This document shows, in pieces, positions 4,648 through 60,403 of a DNA stretch of 64,000 nucleotides. The stretch comes from Escherichia phage vB_Eco_QOTSP: the sequence record OY720014; one strand, 5' to 3'. The first letter of the stretch is position 1. Each line of letters begins with the position of its first letter. Position numbers and translations under genes: made by a program. The notes under the pieces are model-generated. The model had not been told where the DNA came from. It made no database searches and saw nothing but the letters and a program-made list of their open reading frames with translations.

Positions 4648-5100
4648 ATGGCATATTCTGGAAAATGGGTTCCTAAAAATATATCAAAATATAGAGGTGA
4701 CCCTAAAAAAATTACGTATAGATCAAATTGGGAAAAATTCTTTTTTGAATGGTTAGATAAAAATCCAGAAATTATTGCATGGGGTAGTGAAACAGCAGTA
4801 ATTCCTTATTTTTGTAATGCAGAAGGGAAAAAACGTAGATACTTCATGGATATTTGGATGAAAGATTCTTCTGGACAAGAATTTTTTATTGAAATAAAAC
4901 CTAAAAAAGAAACACAACCACCAGTTAAACCAGCACATCTAACAACTGCAGCGAAGAAAAGATTTATGAATGAAATTTATACATATTCCGTTAATACCGA
5001 CAAATGGAAAGCAGCGCAAGCTTTAGCTGAAAAGCGTGGAATAAAATTTAGAATTCTAACAGAAGATGGATTACGAGCTCTTGGCTTTAAGGGGGCATAA
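4648..5100 (+). CDS. 4: gp4 head completion protein (150 aa)
   Basis: 150 aa ORF; synteny 53/4/2/3/1. Confidence 0.85.
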
Positions 5101-44747: not shown

Positions 44748-45950
44748 ATGAAAGTATGTATTTTTATGGCTCGAGGTCTTGAAGGTTGTGGTGTAACTAA
44801 ATTTTCTCTTGAGCAACGTGATTGGTTTATTAAGAATGGTCATGAAGTAACTTTGGTTTATGCTAAAGATAAATCATTTACTCGTAATTGCGCGCATGAT
44901 TATAAATCATTTTCAATTCCGGTTTTATTGGCAAAAGAATATGATAAAACACTTAAGCTGGTAAATGATTGTGATATTCTAATTATCAATTCAGTTCCTG
45001 CTACTTCGGTTGAAGAAGACACTATTAATAACTATAAAAAAATTATTGATAACATTAAACCTTCTGTTCGTGTTGTAGTTTATCAACATGACCATTCTTC
45101 TCTTTCTTTGCGCCGAAATTTGGGATTAGAAGAAACTGTTCGTCGAGCTGATGTTATTTTTAGCCATTCTGATAATGGTGATTTTAATAAAGTTCTGATG
45201 AAAGAATGGTATCCTGAAACAGTTTCTCTGTTTGATGATATTGAAGAAGCACCGACAGTATATAACTTTCAGCCTCCTATGGATATTGCGAAGGTTCGGT
45301 CAACCTACTGGAAAGATGTTTCTGAAATTAACATGAATATCAATCGTTGGATTGGTCGTACGACTACATGGAAAGGTTTTTATCAGATGTTTGATTTTCA
45401 TGAAAAACATCTTAAACCTGCAGGACTAAGTACTATTATGGAAGGTCTGGAACGTTCTCCAGCGTTCATTCCTATTAAAGAAAAAGGAATTCCATACGAG
45501 TATTATCGTCTTCATCAAGTAGACCAAATTAAAATTGCTCCTAATTTGCCAACGCAAATTCTTGACCGTTATGTAAATAGCGAAATGCTTGAACGTATGA
45601 GTAAATCCGGATTTGGTTATCAGTTGAGTAAGTTGGATAAAAAATATCTACAGCGCTCTTTAGAATATACTCATCTCGAGCTTGGTGCATGTGGAACAAT
45701 TCCGGTATTTTGGAAATCTACTGGCGAAAATTTAAAATTCCGTGTTGATAATACTCCTTTGACCTCGCATGATAGCGGTATCATTTGGTTTGATGAAAAT
45801 GATATGGAATCAACATTTGAACGTATTAAAGAACTGTCATCTGACCGAGCTCTTTATGACCGTGAGCGTGAAAAAGCATATGAATTTTTGTATCAGCATC
45901 AAGATTCAAGCTTCTGCTTTAAAGAACAGTTTGACATTATTACAAAATAA
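44748..45950 (+). CDS. agt: DNA alpha-glucosyltransferase (400 aa)
   Basis: 400 aa; MKVCIFMARGLEGCGVTKFSLEQRDWFIKNGHEVTLVYAKDK... close to T4 alpha-gt. Confidence 0.92.
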   Translation: MKVCIFMARGLEGCGVTKFSLEQRDWFIKNGHEVTLVYAKDKSFTRNCAHDYKSFSIPVLLAKEYDKTLKLVNDCDILIINSVPATSVEEDTINNYKKIIDNIKPSVRVVVYQHDHSSLSLRRNLGLEETVRRADVIFSHSDNGDFNKVLMKEWYPETVSLFDDIEEAPTVYNFQPPMDIAKVRSTYWKDVSEINMNINRWIGRTTTWKGFYQMFDFHEKHLKPAGLSTIMEGLERSPAFIPIKEKGIPYEYYRLHQVDQIKIAPNLPTQILDRYVNSEMLERMSKSGFGYQLSKLDKKYLQRSLEYTHLELGACGTIPVFWKSTGENLKFRVDNTPLTSHDSGIIWFDENDMESTFERIKELSSDRALYDREREKAYEFLYQHQDSSFCFKEQFDIITK

Positions 45951-56771: not shown

Positions 56772-57152
56772 ATGAAAATCGCTATTTTGGTTATTGCATT
56801 AGGTCTTACTGGTTGTGTAGCTCAAGGACCGGTAGTAAATCAGTCTGATGCAGGAAAAATTGTAAACTGTTCAAGCAAATTTTATAATCCTAATGTCAAG
56901 TGTTATAAAGAAGCTCCAAAGCAAACAGTCGAACAAATGCAGGCGAATTTTGACGAAGCTATTCGTCCAGATGAATCTGCTCAAGCATATCGTAATTCGG
57001 ATGTAATTACACGCGAAGAAAAAATTGAAAACTACTGCGCCGAGCTTTGGGCTAATTGGGCTAATAATTACCAATGGCGTACTGGTAAAAATGCTCCGAT
57101 GGAGTATGTAGTGAATTCTTATAATTCATGTGTAAAAAATTTGACTAAGTGA
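56772..57152 (+). CDS. putative lipoprotein (126 aa)
   Basis: Signal peptide with lipobox LTGC. Confidence 0.55.
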   Translation: MKIAILVIALGLTGCVAQGPVVNQSDAGKIVNCSSKFYNPNVKCYKEAPKQTVEQMQANFDEAIRPDESAQAYRNSDVITREEKIENYCAELWANWANNYQWRTGKNAPMEYVVNSYNSCVKNLTK

Positions 57153-57159
57153 GGAAAAT

Positions 57160-57411
57160 ATGGAAACTTTAGTAGCAGGTTCAATTTTTATGGTTTTAGT
57201 TTCAGGTGTGTTGGCTATTATTATATACATGCTTCCATGGTTTATTGCTTTGATGCGTGGGTCAAAATCGACAGTAGGAATCTTTTTCACATCTTTACTG
57301 TTTAACTGGTCAATTATTGGTTGGTTTATTACATTTATTTGGTCAATTGCGGGTGAAACTAAAAAGTCTGCACAACCAAATCAGGTAATTATCATCAGAG
57401 ATAAGGAATGA
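57160..57411 (+). CDS. imm: Imm superinfection-immunity membrane protein (83 aa)
   Basis: 83 aa with two transmembrane helices; position between 43 and 42. Confidence 0.8.
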   Translation: METLVAGSIFMVLVSGVLAIIIYMLPWFIALMRGSKSTVGIFFTSLLFNWSIIGWFITFIWSIAGETKKSAQPNQVIIIRDKE

Positions 57412-57564
57412 AAAGCAAAATTATAACAGTGTTGCTTTTAATCTTGATGATTATAATAAGTATATACTATAGTGTAACGGTTCCTCTTATGATTCCAACT
57501 ATTATTTTAGGTTGGGGTTTATTACTGTTACAAGTTAAATATGAATGTATCAATTGAGGTTTAA

Positions 57565-58305
57565 ATGATTAGTGACTCTATGACAGTTGAAGAAATCCGT
57601 CTTCATTTGGGGCTTGCATTAAAAGAAAAAGATTTCGTAGTTGATAAAACTGGTGTTAAAACTATTGAAATTATTGGCGCATCATTTGTAGCAGATGAAC
57701 CGTTTATTTTTGGTGCTCTTAATGATGAATACATTCAGCGCGAACTTGAATGGTATAAATCTAAGAGCTTGTTTGTTAAAGATATTCCAGGTGAAACACC
57801 AAAGATTTGGCAGCAGGTAGCATCTTCTAAAGGCGAAATTAACTCGAATTATGGTTGGGCTATTTGGTCAGAAGATAACTATGCCCAGTATGATATGTGT
57901 TTAGCTGAACTTGGTCAAAATCCTGATTCTCGGCGTGGTATCATGATTTATACTCGTCCATCCATGCAATTTGACTACAATAAAGATGGTATGTCAGATT
58001 TCATGTGTACTAATACAGTACAGTACCTGATTCGTGATAAGAAAGTCAATGCAGTAGTAAGCATGCGCTCAAATGACGTGGTCTTCGGATTCCGTAATGA
58101 TTATGCATGGCAAAAATACGTATTAGATAAATTAGTATCTGATTTGAATGCAGGCGATTCAACTCGTCAGTATAAAGCAGGTTCTATTATATGGAATGTT
58201 GGAAGTCTTCATGTATATTCTCGTCATTTTTACTTGGTTGATCATTGGTGGAATACTGGCGAAACTCATATTGTGAAAAAAGACTATAAAGGTGAGTGGA
58301 AATGA
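57565..58305 (+). CDS. 42: gp42 dCMP hydroxymethylase (246 aa)
   Basis: 246 aa thymidylate-synthase-fold protein; synteny. Confidence 0.92.
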   Translation: MISDSMTVEEIRLHLGLALKEKDFVVDKTGVKTIEIIGASFVADEPFIFGALNDEYIQRELEWYKSKSLFVKDIPGETPKIWQQVASSKGEINSNYGWAIWSEDNYAQYDMCLAELGQNPDSRRGIMIYTRPSMQFDYNKDGMSDFMCTNTVQYLIRDKKVNAVVSMRSNDVVFGFRNDYAWQKYVLDKLVSDLNAGDSTRQYKAGSIIWNVGSLHVYSRHFYLVDHWWNTGETHIVKKDYKGEWK

Positions 58306-59144
58306 TTCAATTCGTAATTCCAAGTTATCAGCGTGTCGGGGCAGTTTCTGCCCTTGATATGTTTCCGACTAATTATGAACCCCATATTGTAGTGCGTGAA
58401 CATGAAGAAAAAGCTTATTATGATGCCTATGGGTCTAGAGCTAAAATTATAACTATTCCTGACGATGTAAATGGAATTGCTGGTACTCGTAAAGCAATTA
58501 CTGATATGTATGCAGGTCAACGAATCTGGATGATTGACGATGATACTACTATTCGTATGAGTTCAATGCGAAAAAGAGATGACCGTCGTTGTGTAGATAA
58601 AGTCAATCAATTAACCCGTGAACAGTTCTATGAATTGATTCAATACGTCGAAGATGCCATGGATTGCGGGTATTATCATGGCCATGCTCGTCTACCAATT
58701 TTTAAAATTACTTCATCTTGGGGTAATTATCGTGAAAATTCATATGGATTCACGAATACATGGTATGACCTTGGAAAACTTACGACAGAACAAATTGGGT
58801 ATGGAAAAATTGATTTGTGCGAAGATATGTATGCATTTCTCAATTTAATTAATCAAGGTTATCCGCATTTGGCCTTGTTCAAATATCTGGTTGTATCTGG
58901 AAAAGCACAAGCTCCTGGCGGGTGCAGTTCAATTCGTAGTAATTCTAAACATAATAGAGCGCTTGAGCAAATCAATAGAGAGTTTCCAGAGCAAGCTCGT
59001 TGGAAAACATCGAATATTGAAAAACGAAAATCGTTGGGTGAAGAAGACGAGCCATTAAAGGTTCTTCGCATGTGTGTTTCACGTAAAGAAAAATCAGAAG
59101 CATTTCATAAGTTTAATGCTATTCATCCAATAGCAGTTGATTAA
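58302..59144 (+). CDS. DxD-motif glycosyltransferase at the beta-gt locus, candidate beta-glucosyl-HMC alpha-glucosyltransferase (280 aa)
   Basis: DxD-type motif (WMIDDDTT); does not resemble T4 beta-gt as I recall it; ATG overlaps gene 42 stop. Confidence 0.55.
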   Translation: MIQFVIPSYQRVGAVSALDMFPTNYEPHIVVREHEEKAYYDAYGSRAKIITIPDDVNGIAGTRKAITDMYAGQRIWMIDDDTTIRMSSMRKRDDRRCVDKVNQLTREQFYELIQYVEDAMDCGYYHGHARLPIFKITSSWGNYRENSYGFTNTWYDLGKLTTEQIGYGKIDLCEDMYAFLNLINQGYPHLALFKYLVVSGKAQAPGGCSSIRSNSKHNRALEQINREFPEQARWKTSNIEKRKSLGEEDEPLKVLRMCVSRKEKSEAFHKFNAIHPIAVD

Positions 59145-59221
59145 TGCCTAAATTTATTGTGTTATAATTACTCTATCTTTAACCAGTGAGGAAAATATAA
59201 TGATGCCTATGGAAAAAATGA

Positions 59222-60403
59222 ATGTCTATTGCAGATTTAAAATCCCGTTTGATTAAAGCTTCCACTTCTAAAATGACTGCTGAACTGACTACATCTAAAT
59301 TCTTTAATGAAAAGGATGTAATCCGTACAAAAATCCCAATGCTTAATATTGCTATTTCTGGCGCGATTGATGGCGGTATGCAGTCTGGTTTAACTATTTT
59401 CGCAGGGCCTTCTAAACACTTTAAATCAAATATGTCTTTGACTATGGTTGCGGCATATTTGAACAAATATCCTGACGCGGTTTGTCTATTCTATGATAGT
59501 GAATTTGGTATTACTCCAGCTTATTTACGATCCATGGGAGTTGACCCGGAACGAGTAATTCATACGCCAATCCAGTCAGTTGAACAGCTGAAAATTGATA
59601 TGGTGAATCAGCTTGAAGCTATTGAGCGCGGTGAAAAAGTTATTGTATTCATCGACTCAATCGGTAATATGGCTTCTAAGAAAGAAACGGAAGATGCCTT
59701 GAATGAAAAATCTGTGGCAGATATGACTCGTGCTAAATCACTGAAGTCATTATTCCGTATTGTTACTCCTTACTTTAGCATTAAAAATATTCCATGTGTT
59801 GCGGTTAATCATACAATTGAAACAATTGAAATGTTTAGTAAAACCGTGATGACAGGTGGTACAGGCGTAATGTATTCGGCTGATACCGTATTCATTATCG
59901 GTAAGCGTCAGATTAAAGATGGTTCTGATCTTCAGGGGTATCAATTTGTTCTAAATGTAGAAAAATCTCGTACCGTTAAAGAAAAAAGTAAATTCTTTAT
60001 TGATGTTAAATTTGACGGTGGTATCGATCCTTATTCTGGATTGTTAGATATGGCTCTAGAATTAGGATTCGTGGTAAAACCTAAAAATGGCTGGTATGCT
60101 CGTGAATTTCTTGATGAAGAAACCGGCGAGATGATTCGCGAAGAAAAATCTTGGCGTGCAAAAGATACCAACTGCACTACATTCTGGGGTCCTTTATTTA
60201 AGCATCAACCATTCCGAGATGCTATTAAACGTGCTTATCAGTTAGGTGCTATTGATAGTAATGAAATTGTTGAAGCTGAAGTTGATGAATTGATTAACTC
60301 AAAGGTTGAAAAATTTAAATCTCCAGAAAGTAAAAGTAAATCAGCAGCTGATTTAGAAACTGACCTCGAACAGTTAAGTGATATGGAAGAATTTAATGAA
60401 TAA
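59222..60403 (+). CDS. uvsX: UvsX recombinase, RecA-like (393 aa)
   Basis: Walker A-like segment and RecA fold signature; MSIADLKSRLIKASTSK... Confidence 0.95.
   Translation: MSIADLKSRLIKASTSKMTAELTTSKFFNEKDVIRTKIPMLNIAISGAIDGGMQSGLTIFAGPSKHFKSNMSLTMVAAYLNKYPDAVCLFYDSEFGITPAYLRSMGVDPERVIHTPIQSVEQLKIDMVNQLEAIERGEKVIVFIDSIGNMASKKETEDALNEKSVADMTRAKSLKSLFRIVTPYFSIKNIPCVAVNHTIETIEMFSKTVMTGGTGVMYSADTVFIIGKRQIKDGSDLQGYQFVLNVEKSRTVKEKSKFFIDVKFDGGIDPYSGLLDMALELGFVVKPKNGWYAREFLDEETGEMIREEKSWRAKDTNCTTFWGPLFKHQPFRDAIKRAYQLGAIDSNEIVEAEVDELINSKVEKFKSPESKSKSAADLETDLEQLSDMEEFNE

Follow-up and report, generated by a model that had tools for sequence, protein, structure and literature searches.

Downstream of gene 42, where T4 encodes its beta-glucosyltransferase (beta-gt), Escherichia phage vB_Eco_QOTSP (sequence record OY720014) carries a different reading frame, which raises the question of what enzyme occupies this slot and which sugar it places on the phage DNA. 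In the 64,000-nucleotide stretch that we analysed, hereafter the window, a first-pass annotation had located a protein of 280 amino acids with the motif WMIDDDTT between gene 42 and uvsX, considered it unlike T4 beta-gt, and predicted from an intact alpha-glucosyltransferase gene (alpha-gt) at 44748 that it adds a second sugar as described for T2 and T6, thereby changing which host restriction systems the DNA evades. Our analysis identifies the protein at 58302–59144, with high confidence, as the T2/T6-type ba-gt (also called ggt or g-gt; Pfam family TAGT), which would transfer a second glucose onto alpha-glucosyl-hmC to form gentiobiosyl-hmC, in a pathway with gene 42 and alpha-gt and with a T6/NR1-like DNA composition expected. 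This identification draws on sequence identity, synteny, family membership, fold and motif conservation, while the product of the enzyme, the phenotype of its deletion in T6 and its interactions with defence systems are taken from the literature.

The ggt reading frame lies on the + strand (58302–59144; 280 amino acids plus stop), starting at an ATG at 58302 and closing with a TAA that ends at 59144, and it contains WMIDDDTT at residues 76–83, as the first-pass annotation had described. Upstream is gene 42 (57565–58305, + strand), annotated as the dCMP hydroxymethylase that makes the hmC precursor (Pfam Thymidylat_synt, E 1.1e-15), and downstream is an open reading frame annotated as the uvsX recombinase (59222–60403, + strand). 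The order gene 42–ggt–uvsX is common to the window, T2, T6, NR1 and EL. The ATG of ggt overlaps the TGA stop of gene 42 (ATGA; tggaaATGAttc), and translational coupling to gene 42, directly upstream, is probable. A GTG at 58296 in the open reading frame listing, two codons 5′ of this ATG, would yield a 282-amino acid version; we chose the ATG, the start also annotated in homologous records. A promoter scan of 57000–59500 returned 12 promoter-like sites against 11.1 in the shuffled expectation and thus no evidence of a promoter belonging to ggt itself, and a terminator scan of the same interval returned 1 terminator-like site against 0.8. This site, at 58338–58354, consists of a G+C-rich hairpin with a T-rich tail behind it (GGGGCAGTTTCTGCCCT TGATATGTTT) and lies 36 nt into the ggt coding sequence; it is also present in T6 and, given the shuffled count, may have arisen by chance.

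Comparisons with characterized phages place the protein among the T2/T6-type enzymes, which likewise have 280 residues and occupy the same slot between gene 42 and uvsX. Over 280 gap-free positions, the window ggt is 98.9% identical to that of T2 (R11H, N24D and P251S, window residue first) and 98.2% identical to that of T6 (N24D, Y40N, D55G and R106H, together with a stop at codon 10 in the compared record). It is 97.1% identical to the ggt of vB_Eco_EL, with eight substitutions, and differs at no position from that of vB_Eco_NR1 (LR990704; 100%). The protein matches PHROG 842, 'beta-glucosyl-HMC-alpha-glucosyltransferase' (E 6.9e-89), and Pfam TAGT (PF20691), the latter at 38.4 bits against a gathering cut-off of 27.5 and over profile positions 3–205 of 205. 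On these sequence grounds, the T2/T6-type second-glucose activity foreseen by the first-pass annotation is supported. NCBIfam holds no model for either this transferase or alpha-gt. The T2 and T6 genes were reportedly cloned by Winkler and Rueger in 1993 (in Nucleic Acids Res), and the enzyme is one that we take to be EC 2.4.1.28. UniProt entries Q06717 and Q06718 are cited for the T2 and T6 enzymes (PMC6024577).

Furthermore, the 2.1 kb around ggt match Shigella phage JK38 (MK962755) at 100% identity; its coding sequence at this locus bears the annotation beta-glucosyl-HMC-alpha-glucosyl-transferase, the name that many GenBank records give to this gene. The ggt at this locus is already known, having been annotated, genetically dissected and chemically characterized in identical or near-identical form. 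The window as a whole is a mosaic, with 100% identity to JK38 over 57400–59500 and approximately 97–98% identity to the best records over 1–25000 and 39001–64000; the phage collection contains no exact match to the window outside the ggt locus, and JK38 does not cover the window ends.

Structure prediction assigns ggt to the GT-A glycosyltransferases. The AlphaFold2 model, for which 10 sequences were aligned (mean pLDDT 70.5, pTM 0.73), is confident over the N-terminal 120 residues and falls below a pLDDT of 50 at residues 125–151 and 194–211. Its structural matches are GT-A enzymes, with the DxD-type motif predicted to sit where a core beta-strand ends. The protein can also be compared with inverting GT-A enzymes of family GT2, such as bacterial cellulose synthase, TarP/TarS and K4 chondroitin polymerase, to which ggt is only 8–18% identical in sequence and from which it differs in using as acceptor a sugar carried by double-stranded DNA. 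Querying the PDB with the ggt sequence returned no relative (best E 1.6, spurious), and Pfam Glycos_transf_2, representing CAZy GT2, was not matched at E≤1, TAGT being the sole profile reported. The protein is thus GT2-like in structure and not a GT2 member by sequence. With a GT2-like GT-A fold, ggt is therefore probably an inverting transferase, and an inverting mechanism is consistent with a donor in alpha configuration, UDP-alpha-glucose, giving a beta-linked product.

Conservation across the family singles out a small set of residues. As a word-indexed protein search gave only 11 homologues, we based family-wide conservation on an exhaustive profile search of cluster representatives, which yielded 2145 TAGT-family matches at E≤1e-3; the window ggt was aligned with 152 of these 2145 representatives (median 22% identity). 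Arg11, Asp79–81, Asp175, Gly186, Gly206–Gly207 and Arg212 are all present in the window ggt, and each is 95–100% conserved among the 153 sequences. The first motif, IPSYQR (residues 6–11; 58317–58334, + strand), follows on from a model strand at residues 3–7 and ends in the invariant Arg11 (Arg in all 151 sequences aligned at this position; Ile6, 94%; Pro7, 90%). WMIDDDTT (58527–58550, + strand) follows a strand at residues 74–77 and contributes the three aspartates, of which Asp79 is Asp in 151 and Glu in 2 of the 153 sequences, Asp80 is Asp in all 153 and Asp81 in 146. Further along, a C-E-D tripeptide (residues 173–175; 58818–58826, + strand) supplies Asp175 (153 of 153), a candidate catalytic base resembling the 'ED' of GT2, and is followed by Gly186 (152 of 153). 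The conserved C-terminal motif GGCSSIR (residues 206–212; 58917–58937, + strand) contains Gly206 (152 of 153), Gly207 (153 of 153) and Arg212 (150 of 153) and lies in a low-confidence region of the model. From GT-A architecture and GT2 precedent, we infer the roles of these residues and the inverting mechanism: a divalent metal, along with the diphosphate of UDP, would be held by Asp79–Asp80–Asp81, the nucleotide-sugar would be bound by Arg11 and the rest of the IPSYQR loop after the first beta-strand, and Asp175 would be the likely catalytic base of the inverting reaction.

The acceptor for such an enzyme can be supplied from within the window, which contains both gene 42 and an intact alpha-gt. 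The latter, as the first-pass annotation had recognized, is a full-length DNA alpha-glucosyltransferase of 400 amino acids (44748–45950, + strand), which matches Pfam AGT (E 1.8e-237) and aligns along residues 1–400 to the crystallized enzyme (PDB 1XV5, E 5.6e-258). It is a T2-type allele, with 99.5% identity to T2, 99.8% to NR1 (I198V only) and 91.5% over the full length to T4, and identities of about 92% to T4, T6 and EL. In the proposed pathway, gene 42 would make hm-dCMP for incorporation into DNA by replication, alpha-gt would use UDP-glucose to alpha-glucosylate the hmC, and ggt, again with UDP-alpha-glucose as donor, would attach a second glucose to the first through a beta-1,6 linkage, giving gentiobiosyl-hmC.

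Published measurements on close relatives give an indication of the resulting DNA composition. By LC-MS, DNA of NR1, TB37, Solly and relatives contains about one-third 5-hmdC and two-thirds alpha-gentiobiosyl-mdC, with alpha-glucosyl-mdC at background only, while EL, BGP and Geo show 5-hmdC, alpha-glucosyl-mdC and alpha-gentiobiosyl-mdC at about 1:2:2 (PMC13390438). The beta-glucosyl form was undetected by LC-MS in all of these phages and their relatives from the Durham phage collection (PMC13390438). For NR1, these data in effect supply the nucleoside LC-MS that the first-pass annotation had put forward as a check. NR1 resembles the window in gene order, in its identical ggt and in an alpha-gt one residue apart, and these two enzymes are the reason that an NR1/T6-like composition is expected; the surrounding genomes are related as mosaics, and the 2.1-kb locus is 99.4% identical in nucleotide sequence. 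For the modification ratio in this phage, we infer by analogy that approximately two-thirds of the hmC is gentiobiosylated and one-third bare, with monoglucosyl-hmC making up very little. The T2/NR1 and T4/T6/EL alleles of alpha-gt are separated by 32–34 residue differences, with a dense block at residues 254–276 (45507–45575), and the NR1-type and EL-type alleles accompany different measured ratios of monoglucosyl- to gentiobiosyl-hmC. Besides the second enzyme, alpha-gt may contribute to this difference between NR1 and EL.

The only rival reading with some substance is that ggt is present and performs poorly, as in T2, leaving DNA that is mostly alpha-monoglucosyl-hmC with a few per cent of gentiobiosyl-hmC. 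The reported gentiobiosyl fraction of hmC is 5% in T2 and 72% in T6 (PMC6024577; PMC11078745), about 70% of the hmC in T2 being alpha-glucosylated, and the window carries the T2 allele of alpha-gt together with a ggt that is only three residues from that of T2. As T2, with enzymes 98.9% and 99.5% identical to those of the window, is yet only about 5% gentiobiosylated, gene presence does not fix the extent of modification. Against a T2-like weak enzyme, however, stands the identity of the window ggt with that of NR1, whose DNA is about two-thirds gentiobiosylated. One of the three differences also falls on the invariant Arg11, which is retained in the window, T6 and NR1 and is His in T2. Moreover, a 50-mer from the T2 N terminus is restricted, among 683 records, to those of T2 and to SV76. 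We therefore disfavour a poorly active ggt and regard it as unlikely; an NR1-like second-glucose transferase remains our reading.

The substitution at position 11 bears on T2 itself. In the T2 record (MH751506; our L004, 4289–5128, minus strand), codon 11 encodes His where the corresponding window codon (58332–58334) encodes Arg. The two T6 records show lesions of their own. In MH550421 (our L003, about 4951–4953, minus strand), codon 10 is changed from CAG to an amber TAG and the annotated coding sequence begins at Met20; in AP018814 (also NC_054907; our L010, 2135–2974, minus strand), one aspartate of the DDD has been lost in frame, leaving WMIDDTT and a protein of 279 amino acids. Both lesions are probably inactivating, and no intact T6-type ggt allele was found among the phage collection records. 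The invariance of Arg11 in 151 of 151 aligned sequences, and the near-identity of alpha-gt in T2 (approximately 5% gentiobiosylated) and NR1 (approximately two-thirds), single out R11H as a possible cause of the long-standing quantitative gap that separates T2 from T6 in diglucosylation. We put this forward tentatively, as something that R11H may but need not explain, together with the suggestion that lesions in both independent T6 records would point to easy loss of ggt in laboratory passage. A further candidate, P251S, was weakened as a cause of low T2 activity, since P251 is conserved in close homologues and not across the family.

The gene is widespread. A tblastn search found the ggt protein in about 680 phage records (688), of which about 470, from coliphages and phages of Shigella, Yersinia and Citrobacter, show at least 95% identity, and about 200, from phages of Klebsiella, Enterobacter and Salmonella, show 60–80%. 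In addition, 474 further phage records align to 80% or more of the 2.1-kb locus, mostly at 95–99% identity. The literature agrees: alpha-gt and ba-gt occur together in 12 of 14 T4-like RB phages, in a survey of 753 phage genomes TAGT accompanies alpha-GT or beta-GT in the large majority, and published surveys describe alpha-GT with TAGT as the usual Tequatrovirus arrangement, with T4 as the exception. The window thus shows the normal arrangement of its genus and not an unusual substitution, a point that the first-pass annotation had missed.

The breadth of the family also gives some room to a TAGT transferase of other specificity, one using another donor sugar, acting directly on hmC or accepting beta-glucosyl-hmC. 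The 2145 cluster representatives make up a large and diverse family, homologues with about 65% identity in CC31 and PS2 are paired with beta-GT and not with alpha-GT, and many phages encode a solitary TAGT. Such a divergence of function is very unlikely, however, at 98–100% identity to the enzymes of T2, T6 and NR1, and the window encodes the alpha-gt that would make the expected acceptor, with no beta-gt found in its 64 kb. We consequently give another specificity very little credence and retain alpha-glucosyl-hmC as the probable acceptor of ggt.

Comparison with T4 delimits the segment that differs. In blastn alignments, homology to T4 stops at 58287, with 95.6% identity upstream, and restarts at 59234, with 88% identity downstream; the segment in between, 946 bp without T4 homology (58288–59233), takes in the last 18 nt of gene 42 and the first 12 nt of uvsX. 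Between the same flanks, T4 (NC_000866, 23556–25496) carries beta-gt and the homing endonuclease gene segA in about 1.94 kb, whereas the window has 946 bp and no segA. As read from the alignments, this is a clean cassette difference with conserved flanks. The two gene products share the slot 3′ of gene 42, UDP-glucose as donor and the formation of a beta linkage, but are unrelated in sequence and differ in fold (GT-B, PF09198, for T4 beta-gt; GT-A for ggt) and in acceptor, which is bare hmC for T4 beta-gt and alpha-glucosyl-hmC for ggt. The dissimilarity to T4 beta-gt that the first-pass annotation had noted is borne out by our searches: BLASTP of ggt against T4 beta-gt gave no alignment (best E 2.2), tblastn with T4 beta-gt had no hit at E≤10 across all 64 kb of the window, and ggt did not match Pfam beta-GT at E≤1. 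A search of the whole JK38 genome likewise found no beta-gt, a result that holds for JK38 and is not transferable to the genome of this phage. Divergent orthology of ggt to T4 beta-gt, with beta-monoglucosyl-hmC as the product, is a reading favoured by shared position only; it is refuted by sequence and fold, finds no echo in the beta-glucosyl-free DNA of NR1 and its relatives, and has a negligible probability.

The expectation that a second sugar changes which host systems the DNA evades is only partly documented. T6 lacking ba-gt contains alpha-glucosyl-hmC only; its DNA can be degraded by the Brig1 glycosylase in vitro, and the phage is more sensitive to Brig1 in vivo (PMC11078745). Gentiobiosylated T6 DNA resists Brig1 in vitro, and T6 is nonetheless restricted in vivo (PMC11078745). 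The deglucosylase BapA acts on DNA of the T6 ba-gt deletion and cannot act on gentiobiosyl-hmC (bioRxiv 10.64898/2026.02.25.707755). The GmrSD-family enzyme BrxU, on the other hand, is effective against NR1, TB37, Solly, EL, BGP, Geo and relatives alike (PMC13390438).

Taken across these systems, Brig1 and BapA act in vitro on monoglucosyl-hmC and not on gentiobiosyl-hmC, Brig3 acts on bare hmC, and GmrSD/BrxU-type enzymes cut all forms; gentiobiosyl modification also alters the behaviour of DNA with restriction enzymes and in sequencing. These effects on defence, restriction and sequencing were known beforehand from T2, T6 and their close relatives, and the value of the present result lies mainly in the correct annotation of the locus. 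For the biology of this phage, the presence of ggt predicts DNA bearing gentiobiosyl-hmC, as opposed to the mixture of alpha- and beta-monoglucosyl-hmC found in T4, a difference that bears on host defences that read the sugars on phage DNA.
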